Of a stretch of DNA of 64,000 nucleotides, positions 6,511-43,010 are shown in pieces. Each line of letters opens with the position of its first letter. Position 1 is the stretch's first letter. The notes beneath the pieces are model-generated. The model was given only the letters and a program-made list of their open reading frames with translations, was not told the origin of the DNA and did no database searches. Position numbers and translations under genes: made by a program. The stretch lies in NCBI GenBank assembly GCA_964512835.1, contig CAZELA010000001.1, forward strand, positions 489,372 to 553,371. The letters run 5' to 3'. This DNA comes from an uncultured Candidatus Saccharibacteria bacterium (GTDB taxonomy: Bacteria > Patescibacteriota > Minisyncoccia > Phycocordibacterales > UBA2100).

Positions 6511-7404
6511 CTAGCCTTTGCCGCCGATGCCGAGCATGAGGGCCATATCATCGACCTGGAGGCTCGAGATCATGTACGCCGGCACGCCGCTCACGATCGA
6601 GTCGGAGCTGTGACTTGCGTAGTCGGTGGTGTGCTGCTCGACGGAGCCATTGCCCTGCTGCGACCACTCATCGTGGATCGCGACCGAGCTTCCGCGTGAG
6701 ACGCCGTAGCCGCCGAACAGGTCGGCATAGACCGTCTGCGAACCGGTGCGCACATCGGTGTGCAGCGAATCGAACGCGTAGTTGCCGATCTGCACATGCG
6801 AGGAGTCGATGACGGCGTCGCGGAACGCGAAGCTGTCGAGATGTTCGAACACCGTTGCCACATGGACGCCGGCGCCTTCGTGGATCTCGATGTGCGAGTT
6901 GTCGATGCCGAGCGCACCGATCTGCACATGCGAGTTCTGGCTCTCGACATTGCGGAACGCGAACTGATCCGACGAACCCCAGATGGAATCCGTGTGGATG
7001 CCCGCCGACTCGCTCGACCAGTAGTGGCCGGACGAGACGTTGTAACCCGGTGCCGAAAACCACGAGCCGTATCCGGAGTTCGACGAGACATGATACATGC
7101 TCGTGTGTCCGAAGATCGAGTAGTAGTCGACGGTGTCGATCGAGAAGTTCGAGAAGGTGTAGTCGCCCCACGCAAACGGACCGTTCGCAGCGGAGTTGCC
7201 GGTGTAGTAGCTCACATCGTAGTGATGGTGCTGCTCCACGATCGGCCAGAAATACACGAACGACACGGGCGGCGAATTCGGAGCCGGCAGAACACTGCTC
7301 TGCATCGGACCCACATTGCCACCGTCGCTCAGGAACCCCATACCGGGGCCGTAGCCGAACATGTCGTCCACGGTCCACAGGCCGAACTTACTTCCGTAGT
7401 TCAT
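6511..7404 (-). CDS. orphan low-complexity repeat protein (H/S/Y/G/D-rich)
   Basis: Start MNYGSKFGLWTV at 7404 is preceded by AGGGAG 7 nt upstream. There are internal approximately 30-aa repeats FAFR(N/D)..SHVQIG mirrored in the DNA (about 6780-6960). Alternative frames on both strands here are Arg-rich high-GC artefacts. Confidence 0.5.
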   Translation of the reverse strand: MNYGSKFGLWTVDDMFGYGPGMGFLSDGGNVGPMQSSVLPAPNSPPVSFVYFWPIVEQHHHYDVSYYTGNSAANGPFAWGDYTFSNFSIDTVDYYSIFGHTSMYHVSSNSGYGSWFSAPGYNVSSGHYWSSESAGIHTDSIWGSSDQFAFRNVESQNSHVQIGALGIDNSHIEIHEGAGVHVATVFEHLDSFAFRDAVIDSSHVQIGNYAFDSLHTDVRTGSQTVYADLFGGYGVSRGSSVAIHDEWSQQGNGSVEQHTTDYASHSSDSIVSGVPAYMISSLQVDDMALMLGIGGKG

Positions 7405-25112: not shown

Positions 25113-27161
25113 CTATGGATTGAGGATTGCGAGCACCTCATTGATGCTGACGGGTTTCGTGAGGTGATGATTGAATCCCGAGACGAGTGCTTCCGACTTA
25201 TCTTCTTCTTGTCCGTAGCCGGTCAGTGCAATCAGTATAGGCTGCACCCCGCCGTGCGCCCTAATTTTGCGCGCAACATCATGACCGGACATATCCGGCA
25301 ATCCGATGTCGAGCAATATCACTTCGGGAATCAGATCGTGCAGCGCAGCCAGCGCCGACTTGCCGTCGTGGACCGCAGTTACCATGTGTCCGTGATGTTC
25401 AAGGAGTCGTTGCATGCCGAGCGCAGCCGCTTCGTTATCGTCGACTACTAATATCCGTTTAGCGGCGTGAGAACGAGCCGGAAGAATACTCGAGGTCGGA
25501 GTATCCTCGTCACGCGCATGTATCAAGGGCAACAAAATCGTGAATGTACTGCCGGTTCCCTCTCCCCACGAGTGCGCTGTGATTGTGCCCCCGTGCATCT
25601 CTACGATCTGACGAGCGAGAAACAATCCGATACCGATGCCCGCAGACCGATGCGGCGCCGGCGCCAACTGCTGGAACGGAGAAAATATTTCCTCGAGACG
25701 ATCCGGTGGTATGCCGTCACCGTTATCCTTGATCGCAATCCGCAACTGACGATCCTCGGTTGTACAGAGGATCTCGATTGCACTGCCCGGCCGCGAATAT
25801 TTTGCCGCGTTATTAAGAATGTTCGTTATTACTTGCTCGAGGCGCACCGGATCGAGCATGAGACGAACGGGTCGCTCCGGGAGCCACATGGTGAGCGTAT
25901 GGTTCTTTGCCTTGCGGTGCGGCTCGGTGGTCTCTACCGAGACCCGTATGAGTTCGGCGAGGTCCGTCGGCTCGGGGATGACCTCGATCTTTTTTTCATT
26001 GATACGTGCAACATCCAGCAGGTCATCAAGCAGGCGCCTCATGGCGAATGTTTGCTGCTCGGCGCGCGAGATTATCTGTGCATTCGCGCCGCTTTCGAGC
26101 TTCAAAAGCTCGAGCGTACTCACCACGGTGGAGAGCGGGTTTCGCAATTCGTGCGCAAGCATTGCGATGAACTCATTTTTTGCGGCGTCATTGGCGGCGA
26201 GCTGTGTCGTAATCCGCTCCAGCTCCGAGATCTGCGCAGTGAGTCGATTGGCCGCCTGACGACGCTCTTCGGCGAGCACAAAGAACTGAAAAAAGATCGG
26301 GGCAATGAGGAGCAAGAACAGCTCGTCGGCGAACAACTGTGACGAAAGCGGGACACTACTCGGATGAGCAACGATACTGCCCATGATGCCGAGTGCAGTC
26401 AAAAGCAGGATCGCCGTCGTATTGACCCGTGAGCCGAATCGAAACGATATCCAAAACAACACGACACAAAGCAGAAAGATGAGGAGGAATACGATCGATG
26501 GGAATGACACCCAGAACAGGAGGTATATGGAAAGAATAAGAAGCCCGAATGCGCTTACCGCCTCCGCGCGTTGCTCCCGCGTGATAGGCCAGCTCCACGA
26601 GTAATACCATCCGGTGATAAACGGCGTTACAACGAGAATGCCGAGTACCCCGCCTGCCCATGCGCGACTGAATGTAATGAATACCGTCTCTGCCAGCACG
26701 CCGAGCATGATCTGTCCGACCGTGTTGAATAACGGCCCTATCGCAGCCGTGAATGCAGCTCCCCCGAGCAAAACCAGAACATCGCGACTGCGATGCAGCG
26801 TTCCGTTTGAACCCATTTTTCTGAAAAGCCACGCTCCGATAAGCGGCTGTAACGTAAATCCTGCGGTTGCAATCGCGATATTCCACGGCGGCAAGTAGTT
26901 GGGAAGTGTCACGAGTGCGACAACATACGCCGCACACACCGGAACCCACATTTTGTTTCCTTTCAAAAGGACCGCTGCAAGTGCTATGCCTGTCGGCGCC
27001 CAAATAAGAGCAGGAGACGTCTGCAGAGTAAACAATATGTACTGCGCCAGCTTTGCGGTCGCGAGATAGGACGAGAACACCAAAAGGTCGGGTATGAGCT
27101 CGCGGCCAAAGATCGTGCGGAGCACGCGCGAAATCAAACCCTGTTCGGCCGACCGCACCAT
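25113..27161 (-). CDS. hybrid sensor histidine kinase with C-terminal receiver domain
   Basis: About 10 N-terminal TM helices, the HisKA H-box AHELRNPL, HATPase N/G boxes, and a receiver ILVVDDNEAA...ILLDIGLPDMSG with a conserved Asp. Confidence 0.8.
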   Translation of the reverse strand: MVRSAEQGLISRVLRTIFGRELIPDLLVFSSYLATAKLAQYILFTLQTSPALIWAPTGIALAAVLLKGNKMWVPVCAAYVVALVTLPNYLPPWNIAIATAGFTLQPLIGAWLFRKMGSNGTLHRSRDVLVLLGGAAFTAAIGPLFNTVGQIMLGVLAETVFITFSRAWAGGVLGILVVTPFITGWYYSWSWPITREQRAEAVSAFGLLILSIYLLFWVSFPSIVFLLIFLLCVVLFWISFRFGSRVNTTAILLLTALGIMGSIVAHPSSVPLSSQLFADELFLLLIAPIFFQFFVLAEERRQAANRLTAQISELERITTQLAANDAAKNEFIAMLAHELRNPLSTVVSTLELLKLESGANAQIISRAEQQTFAMRRLLDDLLDVARINEKKIEVIPEPTDLAELIRVSVETTEPHRKAKNHTLTMWLPERPVRLMLDPVRLEQVITNILNNAAKYSRPGSAIEILCTTEDRQLRIAIKDNGDGIPPDRLEEIFSPFQQLAPAPHRSAGIGIGLFLARQIVEMHGGTITAHSWGEGTGSTFTILLPLIHARDEDTPTSSILPARSHAAKRILVVDDNEAAALGMQRLLEHHGHMVTAVHDGKSALAALHDLIPEVILLDIGLPDMSGHDVARKIRAHGGVQPILIALTGYGQEEDKSEALVSGFNHHLTKPVSINEVLAILNP

Positions 27162-27362
27162 ATAAATGAGAGGTATGCATAATACATGTTTGCACCCGAG
27201 TTTCTAGATGAAAGATGAAGAACGGATGCCACTAGAAATACGCAAAAAAATACGTATAATCCTGTTCACAGCATTGCTGGGCCCTAGCATCAAGCAAACC
27301 AAGCGAAGAGAACTGTGGTTCTCTTCCGAGCGAGAGCAGATGCCGGGGTCGTGAGGATACAC

Positions 27363-27434
27363 GGCCCTATCGTCTATCGGCTAGGACACGCCCCTCTCAC
27401 GGGCGAAAGCGGGGTTCGATTCCCCGTAGGGTCA
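27363..27434 (+). tRNA. tRNA-Glu (CTC)
   Basis: Manual cloverleaf: 7-bp acceptor stem (one G-U), 5-bp anticodon stem CGCCC/GGGCG, loop CTCTCAC, T-loop TTCGATT; no encoded CCA. Confidence 0.8.
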
Positions 27435-27447
27435 CAAAAACACCAAG

Positions 27448-27480
27448 AAACCTGCACTGCTGCAGGTTTCTGCGGTTTTT
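27448..27480 (+). terminator. tRNA-Glu intrinsic terminator
   Basis: aaacctgca-ctgc-tgcaggttt then ctgcggttttt. The flanking CAAAAAC/GTTTTTG segments can extend the stem toward the tRNA 3' end. Confidence 0.5.
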
Positions 27481-27689
27481 GGGAAGACGGAGGCATGTTT
27501 TGCCAGCAGGCAAAACGGCCGAGTCCGGGGCTGGAAAATTTTCGAGCGACGGCGAGAAAATTATTGTGGCCCACAAGACGCTTCACGCCGATTCTCGTTC
27601 ATAAATCCGATTCTCCGTAGAAGGGCTGGAAAATTTTCGAGCGACGGCGAGAAAATTATTGTGGCCCACAAGACGCTTCACGCCGATTC
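27481..27689. repeat. tRNA-trailer structured repeat element, 1.6 tandem copies (Glu locus)
   Basis: Unit contains hairpin gttttgcc-agca-ggcaaaac and hairpin aattttc-gagcgacggcga-gaaaatt, then gtggcccacaag. A second partial copy lies at 27623..27689. Confidence 0.7.
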
Positions 27690-27875
27690 CCTTTCAAGCA
27701 TCCGAAGCCGAGGCGGGCCGGATGACTTTTCAGCAGAAAAGTACCGCTGGCCGCTTCCCCATTGGCTTACAAATCAGTCAGTGAGTCACGTCGATTCTCC
27801 TTTTAACGAATCCGCTATCAGCACAAAAGAAAACACGGCCCTAGTAGGGCCGTGCATTGTTCTTTGGAGTCCAAA

Positions 27876-28346
27876 TCAGGGCGGCAAAAGGACGCCACTC
27901 GTTTTCGCGGACTCGACGGATGCAATTGAGGGGATCCAGAGCTCCCTCGCCGGAACTTCCTCGAACTGGATGTCTCCGCATACGTCTGCAAGGGCCTGAC
28001 GCATTTTTGGGATAATGTGCGGCGCCTCGGCCGCCATGTGCGCTTCGCCTTTCGCGACGAAACCCGTAGGCAAAATGTAGAGCCAATAGAGCCCCCTGGT
28101 ATGTTGCAGGGCGTGCGCCAGACGATACACATCATCTCCCTCAGATCTGGCCCTACGTTCCCAGTCGCCGCTCAATTCATACCCATCAGTGCCATACCTG
28201 AAAACCAGGTATGCACTGCTTTTCATGCGCACCAATTCTCCCGGCACGATGCAATTGAAAACGATAAAGTGACGCGTCGCGTCATGATCCACCGGAGAGG
28301 GCTTGAGTCCGTAGACGACCAAGGGACGGTCGCTTAGAATGTCACG
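27876..28346 (-). CDS. hypothetical protein
   Basis: About 156 aa, no recognised motif. Confidence 0.4.
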   Translation of the reverse strand, partial: RDILSDRPLVVYGLKPSPVDHDATRHFIVFNCIVPGELVRMKSSAYLVFRYGTDGYELSGDWERRARSEGDDVYRLAHALQHTRGLYWLYILPTGFVAKGEAHMAAEAPHIIPKMRQALADVCGDIQFEEVPARELWIPSIASVESAKTSGVLLPP

Positions 28347-31430: not shown

Positions 31431-31976
31431 TCACGGGGATGCGGTCGGTTGGTGCCTTGCAAAGAGCGCGTCGCACGCATCACGAGCAATTTTCTCTGAC
31501 AGGGCCGCGGTCGTTGCGATATTCCTCCAGTGATCGGCGTCGAGCACGACGTGTCGCTTCGCCGCCGGATGGCGAGTGCCCCACAAGACGACGCGATCGT
31601 GACTACTTTGAAACGTGACGATCGGTGCGGGCAGATCGCCGCGCGCACCGAGTACCCGCGTATATCCCACATAGTTATGCGGCGAATTTATGGTCACAAT
31701 GCCGACTACCGGCGTATTGCGCAGCCGCTGAGCGATCGCACAGGCGATCACCCCACCTAGACTGTGTCCCACGATGAGCGATTCCATCCCATCGTCATAG
31801 CGCTGCACCAGTGCATCGCGGTAGCGAATCATGCGCGGTATATCGATGGGCAGCATGCCTCGCTCTTCGGTATTTTGAATGTCCGCGATCGGTGCACGGT
31901 ATGCGATCGCGCGCGCAACGACAGGCACAACCGGGTTGTCGAAGCACCATACGCCGTTGACTCCCAATAACCTCAT
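31431..31976 (-). CDS. alpha/beta hydrolase (lipase/esterase-like)
   Basis: 181 aa with a GHSLGG nucleophile elbow. Confidence 0.6.
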   Translation of the reverse strand: MRLLGVNGVWCFDNPVVPVVARAIAYRAPIADIQNTEERGMLPIDIPRMIRYRDALVQRYDDGMESLIVGHSLGGVIACAIAQRLRNTPVVGIVTINSPHNYVGYTRVLGARGDLPAPIVTFQSSHDRVVLWGTRHPAAKRHVVLDADHWRNIATTAALSEKIARDACDALFARHQPTASP

Positions 31977-32056
31977 TCGCTCCTCCCCTCTTAGCTCGCG
32001 CTGTTATCCCATGTTACAGGGTACGCGTCAAAGCGTGCGTGCCGTATCATACGTGC

Positions 32057-32920
32057 ATGCGTGACACGCTCCGCGAGATCGCCCTCCCTTTTGTTTTGGG
32101 TGTGATCGTCGCTGCAGGCGTATCCGTTTACGATCGTGTAGCAACACCGGTCGAGGCGTACGAACGTCGAGTGCCGTCGTTCGACGAAATGGTATCGACC
32201 GAAGTCGCCATGAGCGACCCTCATCAACTACTGCCTGATCTCGTGCCGCTACCGGCCCGCGACCTCACCTTGAGTATCGGTGCAAACGGTCATTTACAGC
32301 TTCTGTTCAGTACGACCTATTACAACCAGGGCGCAGGGCCGCTCGAATTGCGCGCTGATCCTGCAACAACCGGCATCTTCGATGACATCGACCGCGTTGT
32401 ATCGCAGCGCGTTTTTGCGAGAGACGGCTCCTTCGTGGACAGAAAAGTGGGCGTGTTCCGATGGCATCAAACGCATCTGCATTACCATTTCTCAGATTTT
32501 GTTTCTTATATACTCACCTCCGAAACTGCGCACGATGATCCGATCAGACTGGAAAAAGCGACATTTTGTATCCGCGACGTGAGCAGATTGAAACAGGAGG
32601 TGCCCGACAAAAAGAATGCCGCCACCTATACGATCTGCGGCAAAGAGCGCCAGGGTGTATCTGTCGGTTGGGGCGACACCTATTATTACAACTATCCGGA
32701 CCAATCGATCGATCTCAATGACATACCGACAGGCACGTACCGCTTGTCGTTCGTGGTAAACCCCGCGGGCGCACTCCGCGAGCAGGCATATCTCAACAAT
32801 CGAAGTTATGTCGTGTTCGCTTTCAATAAGGAGGACCACACCGTAACGATCCAAAAAGAATTTCCCGATCACCCGCCCGAGGTCGAACACGTACATTTGG
32901 ACGACCCGTTCGGCATGTAG
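32057..32920 (+). CDS. lysyl oxidase (LOX)-like copper amine oxidase homolog
   Basis: FRWHQTHLHYHF (compare LOX WEWHSCHQHYH), KATFC (LTQ lysine), GDTYYY (LTQ tyrosine), QSIDLNDIPTGTYRL...VNP...YLNN (compare [21 protein letters not shown]...YTNN). N-terminal TM anchor. Confidence 0.6.
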   Translation: MRDTLREIALPFVLGVIVAAGVSVYDRVATPVEAYERRVPSFDEMVSTEVAMSDPHQLLPDLVPLPARDLTLSIGANGHLQLLFSTTYYNQGAGPLELRADPATTGIFDDIDRVVSQRVFARDGSFVDRKVGVFRWHQTHLHYHFSDFVSYILTSETAHDDPIRLEKATFCIRDVSRLKQEVPDKKNAATYTICGKERQGVSVGWGDTYYYNYPDQSIDLNDIPTGTYRLSFVVNPAGALREQAYLNNRSYVVFAFNKEDHTVTIQKEFPDHPPEVEHVHLDDPFGM

Positions 32921-32932
32921 CATACTCAGGCC

Positions 32933-34051
32933 ATGACCCGTTTGCTCATCGGCTTACTTGCGATCCCCGTCGTTCTGTATCTGGCACTGGTCGCTATTTC
33001 TCCTCGCGAGGCGTCTCCGCTCGTACCCGTAGAGACCGCAACTTCGACGGATCGCGTGCAATCAGAGCCGGACCGAGTGATTGCCGATACACTCAGTATC
33101 CCGTGGGACATCGCATTTCTACCCGACGGATCCATGCTCGTAACCGAACGGACCGGTGATGTACTTCATATAACCGATAACGGAAGCTCAACCCGCCTCT
33201 CGGTCACGCGTTCAGTGAGCGGCGAGGCCGGCCTTTTGGGAATCGTGTTGCACCCGAACTTTGCGACCAACAACTACGTATACCTCTATCTATCCACTGC
33301 AGAGGGCGACGGCACGAAGAATGCCGTTATTCGGTATACCTATGCAAACGAAACCCTTACGAAAGACAAAGACATCATCGCGAACATTCCGGGCGCTCTG
33401 TATCACGACGGCGGCCGATTGGAGTTCGGTCCGGACGGTAAGCTGTACATAACGACCGGTGATGCGACGCGAGGTACGCTCGCCCAGAACAAAAATTCGC
33501 TCGCCGGAAAAATTCTTCGATTGAACGACGACGGCACCGTGCCGTCTGACAATCCGTTCGGTACCGCCGTGTGGTCATACGGGCACCGCAATCCGCAGGG
33601 ACTCGCATGGGATTCCAGCGGTCAGCTGTGGGAATCAGAGCACGGGCCGACCGGTGAAGACGGTCGCTGCTGCCATGACGAGATCAATAAAATCGAGGCC
33701 GGGGGTAACTACGGATGGCCGGACGTGATCGGAGATGAAACAAAGGCGGGAACAATCGGGCCGGTCCTGCAGTCAGGCGATGATACCTGGGCGCCCGCAA
33801 GTCTCATGTATTGGAACGGGTCACTGTACTTTGGTGCACTGAAAGGCACGGCACTGATGCGCGCACCATTCTCCGGCGGAACCGTCGTTCGTACCGAACG
33901 TACACTCAGTGATACGTACGGCAGAATTCGAACCGTCCGTGTCGGGCCCGACCGCATGTTCTATATAACGACGAGCAATACGGACGGCCGCGGACGAGCA
34001 CTCCCGATCGACGACCGCATCGTGCGCGTCGATCCGTCATCGCTGCGGTAG
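32933..34051 (+). CDS. PQQ-dependent soluble sugar (glucose/sorbosone) dehydrogenase, YliI-like
   Basis: Beta-propeller motifs PWDIAFLPDGSMLVTER, GRLEFGPDGKLYITTGD, GHRNPQGLAWD and NYGWP. Confidence 0.75.
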   Translation: MTRLLIGLLAIPVVLYLALVAISPREASPLVPVETATSTDRVQSEPDRVIADTLSIPWDIAFLPDGSMLVTERTGDVLHITDNGSSTRLSVTRSVSGEAGLLGIVLHPNFATNNYVYLYLSTAEGDGTKNAVIRYTYANETLTKDKDIIANIPGALYHDGGRLEFGPDGKLYITTGDATRGTLAQNKNSLAGKILRLNDDGTVPSDNPFGTAVWSYGHRNPQGLAWDSSGQLWESEHGPTGEDGRCCHDEINKIEAGGNYGWPDVIGDETKAGTIGPVLQSGDDTWAPASLMYWNGSLYFGALKGTALMRAPFSGGTVVRTERTLSDTYGRIRTVRVGPDRMFYITTSNTDGRGRALPIDDRIVRVDPSSLR

Positions 34052-40296: not shown

Positions 40297-40340
40297 AGCG
40301 GATATACTAGCAAATTTTCATGTATGTGGGTCATATGCAG

Positions 40341-40606
40341 TTTATTTGTGGGTCACCGATAATTTCCTCGCCGCCGCTCGGAAATTTCTCTGACCACGGC
40401 TCGCCCGTTTTGCGTGCTCGCAAAACATGGCTCCGCCCGTCCACAAACCGAAAAAGTCTGCCGCAGGGCAGTTTTTATTTGTGGGTCACAGATAATTTCC
40501 TCGCCGCCGCTCGGAAATTTCTCTGACCACGGCTCGCCCGTTTTGCGTGCTCGCAAAACATGGCTCCGCCCGTCCACAAACCGAAAAAGTCTGCCGCAGG
40601 GCAGAC
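40341..40606. repeat. tRNA-trailer structured repeat element, 2 tandem copies (Ala-GGC locus)
   Basis: Units at 40341..40471 and 40472..40606 are about 97% identical. Each ends with the terminator hairpin gtctgccgcagggcagac plus a T-run. Confidence 0.8.
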
Positions 40607-40619
40607 TTCTTCGTGTTTG

Positions 40620-40692
40620 TGGACCATACCGGAATCGAACCGGTCACCTCTTCCATGCCATGGAAGCGCTCTACCAAATGAGCTAATGGCCC
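40620..40692 (-). tRNA. tRNA-Ala (GGC)
   Basis: Manual fold: G3:U70 identity pair, anticodon loop ATGGCAT, T-loop TTCGATT. Confidence 0.85.
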
Positions 40693-40729
40693 GTAACGCG
40701 GACCATCGTATCAAAAAGTATCGCGAATG

Positions 40730-41230
40730 CTAAATCGCCTGGGGGTCTGTTATCGCCGGCGGATGTGAAAGGCACTGTTTCAGAGCGTCGGATTCGGTCC
40801 AGCCGCACTTTCCGCTCGCCTGAATTTCGCACGTCGCCTCGCGATAGCATGCATACTCCGGTCGAAACTCGCAGGTAGAAACACCGCCGCCGTTCGCGGC
40901 CTCTTCGGCCGAAATACAGAGCTGCATCGAACAGCCGGACACGGCACAGCCGTTCGCCACACTACCCGTTTGCGGCGGCGGCATGTGCGATACCGTTTGT
41001 GCATCATTGGTGAATGTGCGGCCGTCAGGGGTTGCGCACTGTTCCGGAGACGATTCCATGATGGGATAGCCGGCACTCTTACATTCCTCAAACGTGGAGA
41101 TGGCGTACATCTTTTGCTGCTTGGCAATGTTTGAAAGCGAGAGCATAAGCCCCGCGATAAGCGCGAGCACGACCGCGAGACCTAGGAGCATGGGAATACT
41201 TGTCTGCTTGCGCGGAGTATCGTTATCCAT
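40730..41230 (-). CDS. Cys-rich secreted hypothetical protein
   Basis: Signal/TM anchor followed by 14 Cys residues in about 120 aa. Confidence 0.45.
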   Translation of the reverse strand: MDNDTPRKQTSIPMLLGLAVVLALIAGLMLSLSNIAKQQKMYAISTFEECKSAGYPIMESSPEQCATPDGRTFTNDAQTVSHMPPPQTGSVANGCAVSGCSMQLCISAEEAANGGGVSTCEFRPEYACYREATCEIQASGKCGWTESDALKQCLSHPPAITDPQAI

Positions 41231-41352
41231 ATACGTATTGTATCAGACGTAGTTTTTTGGAGCTTCTTTCCGAAGCCGCTATAATCCCGCGTACGCACCA
41301 TGACTTCCCCCGTCGGAGGACACGGCGCGACCCATCTCCGGATGGAGAGTAC

Positions 41353-41426
41353 GCACCTTTAGCTCAGTTGGTTAGAGCGTTCGATTCACATTCGAAAGGC
41401 CTCAGGTTCGAATCCTGAAAGGTGCA
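41353..41426 (+). tRNA. tRNA-Val (CAC)
   Basis: Acceptor GCACCTT/AAGGTGC, anticodon loop TTCACAT. Confidence 0.85.
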
Positions 41427-41570
41427 CAGAAAACCTGCCCTGCGGCATGCTTTCCGGCCGGCGCAGGCAGGAGCGCTGTGAGCCCGGCAGGGCGAACCGC
41501 GTGGCGGGGTCGCGAACATTATTGAGCGGCGGCAAGATAATTATTCGTGACCACTCGATGTTTTCCTGCT
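41427..41570. repeat. degenerate copy of the tRNA-trailer element (Val locus, inverted relative to the tRNA)
   Basis: A degenerate terminator cctgccctgcggcat is followed by attattgagcggcggcaagataattatt-cgtgaccactcg-atgttttcc, matching the hairpin2 / tgaccacgg / gttttgc order of the plus-orientation Ala copies. Confidence 0.4.
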
Positions 41571-41683
41571 AGGATACGTGGCGATGAGATTTTTTGTCGG
41601 GCTCGTCGAGCCGGCAAGCTTCTCTGGAATCTTTTTGCCGGGCTGTCCGGCTTGCACATTGCAGATCAGTAAAGTCTTTTAGC

Positions 41684-41757
41684 CGGGCTGTAGTATACCG
41701 GTAGTACGCACGCTTCGGGTGCGTGTAGACTGGGTTCGATTCCCAGCAGCCCGACCA
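41684..41757 (+). tRNA. tRNA-Pro (CGG)
   Basis: Acceptor CGGGCTG/CAGCCCG, anticodon loop TTCGGGT; CCA is encoded. Confidence 0.85.
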
Positions 41758-41894
41758 AAAGACTGTACTGTAGTGCGTGTAGACGGGTCGTGCGGCGCTA
41801 CGCGCGCTCGCGCCTCACCCTGCAACTCGACACGAAAGATTCCTGAGGCCCGACAAAAGATCTCATCGATAATGCGGGCTGTAGTATACCGGTA

Positions 41895-41968
41895 GTACGC
41901 ATGGCTGGGGGTCATGTAGACCGGGTTCGATCCCCGGCAGCCCGACCATAATCCTCCGAAACGTACGC
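41895..41968 (+). tRNA. tRNA-Pro (GGG)
   Basis: Near-duplicate of the upstream tRNA-Pro with anticodon stem-loop CATGG-CTGGGGG-TCATG; CCA is encoded. Confidence 0.85.
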
Positions 41969-42132
41969 CGGGAATCTCCGGGTTCGAGTCACGCATCATT
42001 CGCTGCTGCGAATGTGCGCGACCCCGACTCGCGCCGCCGCGCTCCGTCTCTTGCGCCCTTCCCGAGCCAGGGCGCAAGCCCGGCAGCCCGACAATTTGAC
42101 TAACCGCCAATAGTGTGGCTATATAGCGCTCT

Positions 42133-42615
42133 ATGGTTATCGTACCCATATGGATGCGCGTGATTCTCGCCGCCGGCATCTGCTTCGCCTCCGGCGCTAT
42201 TGCCGCGCTGTATATGACCAGTCAGTCGCTTGGCTACTTTGGATCGCTTGATCGTCCCCTCCTGTTTGCAATGCCGATACCGGTCATCTTTTTTGCACTG
42301 GTTGTTACCTACGCAATCATTTCGATCGCATCGGCACTCATGTGGATCCACGATCCGCGCCCGTGGGATTTTCGCGGCTGGGTTCCGTTGTTTTTTACAC
42401 ACCTGCTTGTACAGGTGGGATGGCTCATACTCCTATTCGCATACAACGTCGTATTTGTCGCGATGCTGATGGCCTTCGTACTCGCGACCTATGTTTTTAT
42501 ATTGACGGCAGCGGCGTGGGAGCGCAGCAAGATCGCGTTTTGGCTTTTGCTCGTATATCTCGCATGGACGCTCTACGCGCTCGGCATGAACATCGCCGTC
42601 TGGGGAGTTAACTAG
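42133..42615 (+). CDS. TspO/MBR family membrane protein (second paralog)
   Basis: 160 aa with 5 TM helices; Trp-rich motifs (LMWIHDPRPWDFRGWVPLFF, AWTLYA). Confidence 0.55.
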   Translation: MVIVPIWMRVILAAGICFASGAIAALYMTSQSLGYFGSLDRPLLFAMPIPVIFFALVVTYAIISIASALMWIHDPRPWDFRGWVPLFFTHLLVQVGWLILLFAYNVVFVAMLMAFVLATYVFILTAAAWERSKIAFWLLLVYLAWTLYALGMNIAVWGVN

Positions 42616-42616
42616 C

Positions 42617-42846
42617 ATTGTGGGCCACAAATATTTTAGTCGCCGTCGCGACTAAAATTTTCTGACCACGGCGCGCCCGTCCACAAACCGAAACAGTCTG
42701 CCGCAGGGCAGGTTTTTATTTGTGGGTCACCGATAATTTCCTCGCCGCCGCTCGGAAATTTCTCTGACCACGGCTCGCCCGTTTTGCGTGCTCGCAAAAC
42801 ATGGCTCCGCCCGTCCACAAACCGAAAAAGTCTGCCGCAGGGCAGA
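42617..42846. repeat. tRNA-trailer structured repeat element, 1 degenerate + 1 full copy (Ala-CGC locus)
   Basis: The 42712..42846 copy is about 98% identical to 40472..40606. The 42617..42711 copy keeps the outer motifs but replaces the central hairpin with ttttagtcgc-cgtc-gcgactaaaa. Confidence 0.8.
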
Positions 42847-42860
42847 CTTTTTCGTGTTTG

Positions 42861-42931
42861 TGGACCTATCGAGAATCGAACTCGAGACTGTGCAATGCGA
42901 ATGCACCGGTATACCACTTACCTATAGGCCC
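42861..42931 (-). tRNA. tRNA-Ala (CGC)
   Basis: G3:U70 identity pair, anticodon loop TTCGCAT. Confidence 0.85.
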
Positions 42932-43010
42932 ATCGACGTGAAAATATACCACTCTCCGATCGAAACAAAAAGCGTAACAACAAAAACCTCCGCTTTCGCG
43001 GAGGTGTTTG

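Follow-up and report, generated by a model that had tools for sequence, protein, structure and literature searches.

The window analysed here is the whole 64-kb stretch (64,000 nucleotides) of contig CAZELA010000001.1, which comes from an uncultured Candidatus Saccharibacteria bacterium. Six tRNA genes were identified in it by ARAGORN (Glu-CTC, Ala-GGC, Val-CAC, Pro-CGG, Pro-GGG and Ala-CGC). The 3' CCA is not encoded in any of the six (e.g., the Ala gene ends in GGTCCA and is followed directly by CAAAC), and 3' maturation must therefore use an endonucleolytic cut or trimming, plus a CCA-adding enzyme. The window also contains eight copies of a structured element, each located 3' of a tRNA gene, and five of the six tRNA genes are involved. 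Copies at the Ala, Glu and Val genes start right at the tRNA 3' end and have the same sense as their own tRNA, with one to two units per locus and about 2.5 at Glu. A first-pass annotation of this DNA, made from the letters without database searches, had reported repeat units after tRNA-Ala(GGC), tRNA-Ala(CGC), tRNA-Glu and tRNA-Val, and these are present where it placed them. It counted four tRNA genes as involved, having overlooked an inverted core at 41983-42059 after tRNA-Pro(GGG). It also described the Val copy as inverted, which is the case only in window coordinates; relative to its own tRNA, this copy has the sense and position of the others.

Read in the sense of the tRNA, a unit begins with a CUGC-loop hairpin, followed by A', in which the tRNA 3' end is copied in inverted form, a core of ~100 nt and A, a direct copy of that end, after which the next unit follows in arrays. 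The core is a three-way junction made of a closing helix (P1) and two irregular hairpins (I and II). Copies were scored using a covariance model, R1, which was seeded with 14 diverse copies. Those in the window score 35-112 bits, and a search with filters off found nothing else in the 64 kb at E<0.1, in agreement with the earlier statement that copies occur only downstream of tRNA genes. The features of the window are as follows.

40619..40692, minus strand: host gene tRNA-Ala(GGC) (ARAGORN; Rfam tRNA 61 bits; CCA not encoded)
40572..40624, minus strand: long hairpin of tRNA-Ala(GGC) (RNAfold -39.4 kcal/mol, 6 tRNA nt paired; terminator scan)
40480..40580, minus strand: core of the tRNA-proximal Ala(GGC) unit, a three-way junction (R1 112 bits, E 1e-25)
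40448..40479, minus strand: inter-unit junction of Ala(GGC), with a direct tRNA end/trailer copy GACCCACAAAT and then a second CUGC hairpin at 40458-40471
40347..40447, minus strand: core of the distal Ala(GGC) unit (R1 107 bits)
42860..42931, minus strand: host gene tRNA-Ala(CGC) (ARAGORN)
42813..42865, minus strand: long hairpin of the tRNA-Ala(CGC) 3' end and A', with CUGC loop (-40.7 kcal/mol, 6 tRNA nt paired; terminator scan)
42721..42821, minus strand: core of the tRNA-proximal Ala(CGC) unit, unit 42712-42846 (R1 107 bits)
42619..42714, minus strand: second CUGC hairpin (42695-42714) and distal Ala(CGC) unit (R1 60 bits; alignment; terminator scan)
27363..27435, plus strand: host gene tRNA-Glu(CTC) (ARAGORN)
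27435..27481, plus strand: CUGC-loop hairpin of Glu, outer stem CAAAAAC (trailer) with GTTTTTG (A') (-27.4 kcal/mol)
27476..27575, plus strand: core of the Glu-type unit, whose stems differ from those of the Ala units by compensatory changes (R1 90 bits; alignments)
27623..27667, plus strand: partial Glu unit, hairpin II alone (R1 35 bits, model positions 52-96)
41353..41427, plus strand: host gene tRNA-Val(CAC) (ARAGORN)
41433..41556, plus strand: CUGC hairpin (~41433-41451) and Val-type core (41457-41556), same sense as the tRNA (R1 80 bits)
41875..41948, plus strand: host gene tRNA-Pro(GGG) (ARAGORN)
41983..42059, minus strand: inverted core lacking hairpin I (R1 35 bits, E 1e-6; ortholog at L001 722-798)
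42079..42093, plus strand: tRNA-Pro(GGG) 3' end repeated directly, with 14 exact nt (CCCGGCAGCCCGAC) inside a 15-nt stretch
41768..41861, plus strand: trailer of tRNA-Pro(CGG), gene at 41684-41757 (local alignment; inverted repeat)

The array at tRNA-Ala(GGC) comprises two units (40341-40471 and 40472-40606) with a tandem period of 133 nt. In the hairpin at 40572..40624, A' (GTTTGTGGAC), the inverted copy, pairs with the last six tRNA nucleotides and the trailer (A), and the tip GTCTGCC-CTGC-GGCAGAC followed by a T-run makes this hairpin terminator-like on both strands. The proximal core at 40480..40580 is closed by P1 (GUUUGUGG/CCACAAAU); its hairpin I has a GGA/GA internal loop and an AGCA loop, and its hairpin II has a bulged A, tandem G.A pairs and a GGCG loop. 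It has a minimum free energy of -51.4 kcal/mol (z -5.6), and the fold matches the consensus. The distal unit is 99% identical to the proximal one and 100% identical to the proximal unit of Ala(CGC). Overall, identity is 99-100% among full Ala units, which come from two loci 2.2 kb apart, and 77-81% between these and the Glu and Val units; the values first given were 97-98% among Ala units and 60-70% against Glu. Diagnostic 20-21-mers of the element were seen 6-8 times, compared to a chance expectation of 0.02-0.03.

Units previously called degenerate or partial are indeed shortened, and the missing parts can be specified. The partial Glu unit consists of hairpin II only, and the distal Ala(CGC) unit (42617-42711) lacks hairpin I and has a perfect 11-bp stem as its hairpin II tip (ATTTTAGTCGC-GACG-GCGACTAAAAT). 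A possible decayed Glu unit at 27694-27756 reached an E value of about 1, which is not reliable. Decayed tRNA-Glu end copies in the Glu trailer (18 nt with at most 6 mismatches) were rejected as no better than chance window-wide, and an apparent extra copy at 31488-31586 consisted of chance matches within a coding open reading frame (ORF), with no model match. The ORFs predicted over the repeats are spurious, as had been proposed, and they also overlap the tRNA genes.

The two Pro trailers have their own arrangement. Past tRNA-Pro(GGG), the 3' half of the tRNA is partly copied, and the inverted core, beginning at 35 nt, lies within the T loop of this copy, so that the trailer (41959-42110) reads CCGGGTTCGA, core, hairpin, CCCGGCAGCCCGACA. 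In relatives (loci L013 and L014), T arm and acceptor strand are copied at the same place without interruption over 23-24 nt. Behind tRNA-Pro(CGG), the trailer repeats part of the tRNA 3' half, has another insert of ~50 nt, ends in GATTCC..GCCCGACAAAAGA and also contains a copy of the anticodon-stem/variable region of the tRNA, the insert lying between this copy and that of the 3' end; no R1 core is present in it. Since both Pro trailers copy the 3' half of their own tRNA, all six tRNA trailers in the window are of this general type.

Fold, strand and terminator-like properties of the units

The CUGC hairpin has a conserved tetraloop and lies between an A-run and a T-run, and it receives an intrinsic-terminator score on both strands. 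Its stem is extended by A', which pairs with the last 4-6 tRNA nucleotides and the first trailer bases (GTCCACAAAC); this pairing with the tRNA end spans 4-6 or 17-19 nt, depending on the locus. The extended hairpin has 24-27 bp with a folding energy of -25 to -45 kcal/mol and covaries with the tRNA end (GTCCA/TGGAC for Ala and TGCAC/GTGCA for Val). The CUGC tetraloop is kept with covarying stems at ~15 loci (e.g., window 40587-40608 and 27446-27470, L007 and L011). Ordinary terminators of the window (near 27836; 42986-43005) have other loops, indicating that the hairpin is part of the element and not a generic terminator. A kissing interaction between the CUGC and AGCA loops was considered and rejected, as the loops show no covariation.

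These properties raise the possibility that the units are purely cis-acting modules at the ends of tRNA genes, serving as a long terminator or insulator combined with an exonuclease block or a guide for 3' processing of the CCA-less pre-tRNA, with no functional RNA. The CUGC hairpin, a G+C-rich hairpin followed by a T-run, has the form of an intrinsic terminator in both directions, its stem always takes in and covaries with the tRNA end, and CCA is encoded in none of the tRNA genes. The 100-nt core beyond the hairpin is not explained in this way: conserved loops, bulges and tandem G.A pairs are needless for a terminator. Units are also repeated in tandem, some lie between co-transcribed tRNAs, where termination would be harmful, and many tRNAs of relatives do without the element. 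A purely cis-acting role is thus rather unlikely.

In the core, hairpin I is interrupted by a GGA/GA internal loop and has an AGCA loop and a tip of 8 bp. The base of hairpin II is GGTCA/TGACC, and it also has an A/U-rich helix with a bulged A, topped by tandem G.A/A.G pairs and a GRCG tetraloop; what had been read as a 12-nt loop is itself paired (tandem G.A/A.G, G-C, C-G and the tetraloop). The 3' strand of P1 is the direct copy A and repeats the surroundings of the tRNA 3' end (GACCCACAAAT vs. GGTCCACAAAC). Both hairpins were recovered unguided by RNAalifold from 20 copies. Across 28 distinct copies, 93.0% of cells form pairs compared to 68.8% in shuffles, and 30 of the 35 pairs change on both sides, compared to at most 14 when partners were slid by 1-3 columns. 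A MAFFT alignment of the seed gave the same covariation picture. The core junction is strongly supported by these compensatory changes. One relative has a Glu-type unit (L002 3008-3157) whose hairpin II is enlarged by ~50 nt inserted in its terminal loop, which indicates that this loop tolerates large insertions.

The fold could in principle be read from either strand. Each unit on the opposite strand ends in a hairpin with a good T-run (e.g., 40458-40471 and then TTTTTATTTG), and the antisense strand also folds well (z -4.1), which would suit a small RNA transcribed from the opposite strand, ending at the two-way terminator and converging on the tRNA gene. Changes in the stems, however, leave 36 G-U against 10 A-C combinations on the tRNA-sense strand, the antisense fold is weaker by 11.7 kcal/mol, and R1 matches reach 107-112 bits in sense and 24 bits in antisense. 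The G-U excess and the weaker antisense fold place the structure on the tRNA-sense strand. Moreover, no promoter-like site was found for an antisense transcript, the last unit of each array has no upstream promoter context of its own, and the orientation of the units is bound to the tRNA strand. We regard an antisense small RNA as scarcely credible, and strand and distribution evidence largely exclude it.

Occurrence across genomes and copies of tRNA 3' ends

The distribution of the element was investigated with a 26-nt degenerate motif in one genome per species across 185,579 species. All 11 matches came from metagenome-assembled genomes (MAGs) of the candidate phyla radiation (CPR)/Patescibacteria, with Kaiserbacteria, Paceibacterota, Nomurabacteria or "Saccharibacteria" labels, and each is on the strand of a tRNA-Ala or tRNA-Glu gene, 110-360 nt downstream of it. 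A scan of a metagenome collection added one locus, and three scans of viral contigs gave nothing or chance matches without model support. Model R1 was then applied to the window, the motif-scan loci and four syntenic loci found via homologs of a TspO gene (241 kb on both strands, from ~15 CPR/Patescibacteria genomes). It found 33 copies at E<1e-4, all of them in tRNA 3' flanks, one at a contig edge with its upstream sequence missing, and none away from a tRNA flank. Association with tRNA genes across related genomes, which had been put forward as a check on the proposed repeat family, is borne out in this sequence. Wherever a motif or model match has an adjacent tRNA on the same sequence, the distance is at most 360 nt.

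Thirty of the 33 copies are on the tRNA strand, and 29 of these lie 18-282 nt past the gene, the thirtieth being the copy at the contig edge. First units begin 18-79 nt past the tRNA gene, at a fixed 36-41 nt for loci of the window type (those with a short tRNA-end copy). Of the three inverted copies, two are located 35 nt past tRNA-Pro(GGG), one in the window and one in its ortholog; the other is also an ortholog of a tRNA-Pro(GGG) inverted copy and passed only in a smaller search. Loci with two units occur among relatives (L004, L005, L006 and L010), and orthologs of the Val-type unit are found at L001, L004, L014 and L016. In the Ala-GGC trailer of a close relative (L008 ~7140-7270), a different core of ~130 nt replaces the second unit of the window; its ends are alike (AGAC...GAGTCAC) and it is R1-negative, so more core families probably exist.

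The units are also well conserved. Compared between the window and a relative, identity is 99% for a unit and 86-88% for the flanking DNA, and orthologous units are kept across genomes whose neighbouring proteins share 60-70% identity, diverging by compensatory changes. Across genomes, units fall into groups that follow the amino-acid type of their host tRNA and not the genome. Of the two readings offered in the first-pass annotation, a conserved trailer RNA is supported by this evidence: the units are always on the 3' side, nearly always on the tRNA strand, show compensatory changes with a G-U excess and are conserved above the neighbouring genes.

The other reading was a repeat similar to repetitive extragenic palindromic sequences (REP), bacterial interspersed mosaic elements (BIME) or miniature inverted-repeat transposable elements (MITE), spread selfishly by a REP-associated tyrosine transposase (RAYT) or other transposase and happening to favour terminators. 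Multi-copy palindromic units, and the near-identical copies at the two Ala loci, are what such a repeat would produce. Grouping by tRNA type and conservation above the flanking genes speak against it, as do the absence of any copy outside tRNA flanks in the 241 kb and, in 30 of 33 copies, an orientation fixed to the tRNA. Inverted repeats are confined to end copies of the host tRNA, with no family-wide terminal ones, and a Pfam scan of the 30 largest ORFs in the window found no transposase, integrase, reverse transcriptase or other mobile-element gene. This makes a transposable repeat very improbable, and its distribution largely excludes it.

Copies of tRNA ends were counted within 400 nt on either side of 37 tRNAs, with paralogous neighbouring tRNA genes excluded for direct copies. 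Exact direct copies of at least 12 nt occur downstream of 11 of the 37 and upstream of none; inverted copies of at least 10 nt occur downstream of 11 of the 37 and upstream of one. A mimic of the tRNA 3' end had been noted in the window and is present, although it covers just 7-10 nt around the tRNA end there. Exact copies in the window are 7-14 nt long (CCACAAA for Ala and CCCGGCAGCCCGAC for Pro), and those in relatives reach 19-22 nt (tRNA-Arg at L004; tRNA-Ala(GGC) at L004, L015 and L016; tRNA-Ser and tRNA-Glu at L010). At such long-copy loci, the core lies between inverted and direct copies spanning the T loop to the discriminator. The units form the same two-hairpin junction, closed by an A'/A helix of 15-17 bp (z -6 to -7), whose 3' strand is the T-stem and acceptor strand of the tRNA, with the discriminator unpaired. 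As modelled, this closing helix resembles the top half of a tRNA. The A'/A inverted repeats are 5-20 nt long and vary with the host tRNA. An origin at the DNA level is indicated by the inverted copies that are perfectly Watson-Crick paired and have A-U at the position of G3.U70 in tRNA-Ala. On a smaller scale, tRNA 3'-end instability can be seen in a close relative (L001 150-175), in which 7 nt of the tRNA-Val end are duplicated in tandem behind the gene (GTGCACC GTGCAC).

In a different explanation, each unit is a miniature integrative element that is non-autonomous, or what is left of one, and inserts into the T-loop-to-3'-end segment of tRNA genes. The element's own copy of the tRNA end would restore the gene and move the original end downstream, the hairpins would be recognized as single-stranded DNA or by a recombinase, and A'/A would form a folded attachment site as in CTX phage or attC. 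A circle A'-core-A-X, integrated by exchange of one strand within A, would give exactly the order tRNA(A)-X-A'-core-A. The T loop, in which the repeat starts, is the classic crossover site of integrases. At L004 and L016, a long-copy unit is located between the tRNA and an "A + CUGC hairpin (+ window-type unit)" arrangement that resembles the ancestral trailer. The perfect 19-22-nt copies, one inverted copy, the tandem arrays and the differing unit content of close relatives would also fit. Sub-families that follow tRNA type across genomes would not, and orthologous units that persist and diverge compensatorily look like vertical descent under constraint. No copy carries large cargo or lies beside a recombinase, nothing was found in viral contigs, and the conserved "loop" and variable "stem" are the opposite of attC. 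We keep integration as a tentative alternative, possible although on balance unlikely.

Proposed transcription, processing and change in copy number

Our preferred reading, which we hold with roughly even confidence, is that the units are the CPR (Paceibacteria-type) form of tRNA-linked repeats (TLRs), also known from the RtT family: trailer RNAs co-transcribed with the tRNA and cut at the tRNA-end copies, whose copy number changes by recombination. Each unit would be transcribed along with its tRNA, and A' would pair with the downstream A, which would close the junction and also keep A' off the acceptor stem of the tRNA. The machinery that processes tRNA ends would cut at each A copy as at the tRNA itself, so that each unit would yield one stable structured RNA, which may act in trans. 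Recombination between repeated A segments would alter the number of units; it could explain the tandem arrays, the 100% identity of units at the two Ala loci and differences among close relatives such as the second unit of L008. The inverted copies may have arisen by template switching across hairpins or by a recombination event, the pairing being maintained afterwards.

The sequence context at two loci suggests co-transcription. At L004, a unit lies 38 nt past tRNA-Val and 37 nt ahead of tRNA-Pro, with no T-run. At L015 (5850-6028), the start codon of a TMEM175-family gene is 6 nt past the second copy of the tRNA-Ala 3' end, leaving no room for a separate promoter, which suggests that tRNA, unit and mRNA are transcribed together. 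Cutting at the A copies in CPR is suggested by analogy with the ends of RttR in Escherichia coli.

Several observations weigh against this reading. The first hairpin and its T-run score well as a terminator, and the core might rarely be transcribed. The element is missing at all three orthologous tRNAs in L013 and at tRNA-Val in L015, and it is thus dispensable. A' drifts, but the second A copy remains identical to the tRNA, a pattern that an origin at the DNA level fits equally well. In the window, the A copy is just 7-10 nt and P1 is not acceptor-like, so a mimic of the tRNA top half rests on the relatives. Finally, the TLRs of E. coli have no established function (PMC8144298).

A more far-reaching view, which we consider improbable, holds that TLR-type repeats are ancient or repeatedly evolved mimics of the tRNA top half acting in trans, or that A'/A is a self-programming attachment site. 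As mimics, the structured RNAs would each be clamped by a helix that copies the T-stem and acceptor strand of the host tRNA and would be matured by RNase P, RNase Z and the CCA-adding enzyme. Their targets could be enzymes or toxins that recognize tRNA 3' ends, for which they would be decoys, sensors or competitors, with A' as a tRNA-specific guide. As an attachment site, the A'/A hairpin would let a unit copy itself into a matching tRNA gene.

The surroundings of the units were also inspected. The gene content of the window is that of an ordinary chromosomal segment (noted at 25113-27161 and 32039-34051) and includes a MASE1-domain hybrid histidine kinase just upstream of tRNA-Glu, a lysyl-oxidase-like gene and a glucose/sorbosone dehydrogenase. 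Right after the end of the pseudo-tRNA-Pro, a sigma-70-like promoter (TTGACT, 18 nt, TATATA; 42096-42135) is present and conserved in L013. It lies just 8 nt upstream of the ATG of a TspO/MBR-family gene (42133-42615), a distance that suggests a leaderless mRNA.

Comparison with known systems

Searches with Rfam 15, at the gathering score on the window and at E<=10 on four sub-regions, returned tRNAs and noise only. Several candidates were set aside. A permuted (two-piece) transfer-messenger RNA (tmRNA) gave sub-threshold scores of 13-23 bits (gathering 47) over the T arm and hairpin, and ARAGORN found no tmRNA. A riboswitch or other 5'-untranslated element does not fit, as there is no consistent downstream gene and the core comes after, not before, the terminator-like hairpin. 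The group I introns of Patescibacteria tRNAs sit in the anticodon loop and are unrelated (PMC13011429), as are tandem interspaced guide RNA (TIGR) arrays, which are 36-nt guide arrays (PMC12045711). In a mobilome paper that mentions rttR, the authors ascribe the signal to RNA/DNA hybrids, not circles (10.1101/2024.07.17.603846).

Like the CPR elements, REP/BIME and MITE repeats are short, palindromic, multi-copy and extragenic, and often lie near terminators. They differ in being dispersed genome-wide, with constant ends and no link to a class of genes, whereas the CPR elements occur only at tRNAs and have ends that match the host tRNA. Neither the genome-wide dispersal of REP/BIME repeats (no copy outside a tRNA flank in the 241 kb) nor the family-wide terminal inverted repeats and fixed target-site duplication of MITEs were found, the only inverted repeats being A'/A.

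Islands integrated at tRNA genes by tyrosine integrases, and their cis-mobilizable relics (CIMEs), are bounded by attL/attR duplications, in which the tRNA segment between T loop and 3' end is directly repeated, the tRNA gene is completed by the proximal copy and arrays can build up. The CPR elements have these features in common, including direct repeats of the tRNA 3' segment as boundaries. They differ in their size (100-190 nt), in lacking an integrase, and in having a conserved, covarying interior and an inverted copy of the site. No integrase or integrase remnant was found (no integrase domain in the window ORFs scanned), and there is no kilobase cargo (the tRNA is at most 360 nt from the matches). 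The attC sites of integrons and attP of CTX phage have inverted arms, a loop of ~60-140 nt, a preferred strand and arrays. The CPR units are alike in arms, loop size, strand preference and arrays. Stems are conserved and loops vary in attC, however, and the CPR units show the reverse, and neither an Xer site nor the context of an integron integrase was seen.

Other RNAs also borrow the promoter of a tRNA: 3'ETS-leuZ of E. coli and the plant dicistronic tRNA-snoRNA genes (cut by RNase Z) yield non-tRNA RNAs freed by tRNA-processing enzymes. They differ from the CPR units in having no tRNA-end copy or inverted copy, no tandem repeats and no multi-locus family. Small RNAs derived from tRNA precursors are mentioned in PMC8144298 and appear in the reference list of PMC12045711.

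The closest likeness is to the TLRs, first seen by Egan and Landy in 1978 and defined as a class also after Rudd 1999 (PMC8144298). E. coli has 22 TLR units at ten loci, with 1-5 units per locus, located in tRNA or rRNA operons and having 18-19 bp in common with the 3' end of the upstream gene (PMC8144298). TLR/RtT units (rttR, downstream of tyrT/tyrV) and CPR units alike lie directly 3' of a tRNA (TLRs also of rRNA) on the same strand and form tandem arrays of 1-5 units of ~130-180 nt. In both, the 3' end of the upstream gene, from the T loop onwards, is repeated at the end of a unit, A' pairs with A to close a multi-helix junction, and the layout is tRNA end, spacer, inverted copy, structured core and direct copy. 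The identity of 18-19 bp at the ends is reached in the relatives (19-22 nt), while the window has just 7-14 nt. The consensus of the Rfam family RF00391 (RtT) is closed by GGGGAAGGAU with AUCCUUCCCC, followed by single-stranded CACCACCA; this closing helix is an inverted and a direct copy of the T-stem and acceptor strand of tRNA-Tyr, and annotated RttR runs from just past tRNA-Tyr to the CCA of the next A copy.

The two kinds of unit have no detectable homology, and the fold of the core is different. RF00391 gave no match at gathering in the window, nor at E<=10 on 40300-42900, 27340-27900 and L004 5500-6000; as a positive control, it identified three RtT units in the tyrV trailer of E. coli MG1655, at 134-138 bits. 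Conversely, R1 matches just an 18-nt hairpin, CUCGAGCGCCAGCGAGAG, in the E. coli units (~8 bits, E 0.1-0.4). Each TLR unit of the tyrV trailer (L020) holds this hairpin (979-996, 1157-1174 and 1335-1352), which is a small tandem-G.A hairpin like that of the CPR units (CCGAGCGRCGGCGAGG). The shape of tandem G.A and tetraloop, common to it and the tip of hairpin II, is taken as a resemblance only and may be due to chance or convergence. The CPR units add the conserved CUGC-loop hairpin, whose stem engulfs the tRNA end, the end copy of the window units is 7-10 nt without CCA, and the host phylum is very distant.

A sub-group of TLRs from the T1-T2 region of E. coli rRNA operons (rrA, rrB and rrF) is transcribed via read-through at the first terminator and then processed (PMC8144298). 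Like the CPR units, these RNAs lie past a first terminator that would be read through, and at their boundary the 3' end of the preceding stable-RNA gene is repeated. They differ in following 5S rRNA, in binding Hfq and CsrA, partners that are not known for CPR, and in having dissimilar sequences.

TLRs, described in 1978, have been treated as an enterobacterial curiosity without an accepted function. Genome-reduced CPR bacteria have a second, independent and non-homologous family with the A-A'-A layout, for which the evidence of selection (covariation, conservation above the flanks and sub-families by tRNA type) is much stronger than for the TLRs of E. coli. The layout is thus either functional or the product of a general mechanism at tRNA 3' ends. 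The preferred reading, that of processed trailer RNAs, yields a concrete and testable prediction on the processing of units, and presence/absence contrasts among relatives can be used to find partner proteins. Model R1 can also annotate regions that now give spurious ORFs in CPR MAGs. The possibility that the repeat belonged to a class already known had been raised at the outset; it is not a known class of this taxon, and its core is absent from Rfam, while its architecture does match the TLR/RtT class of E. coli. The CPR elements are therefore best described as repeats of the tRNA-linked (TLR/RtT-like) kind in a new, CPR-specific form.

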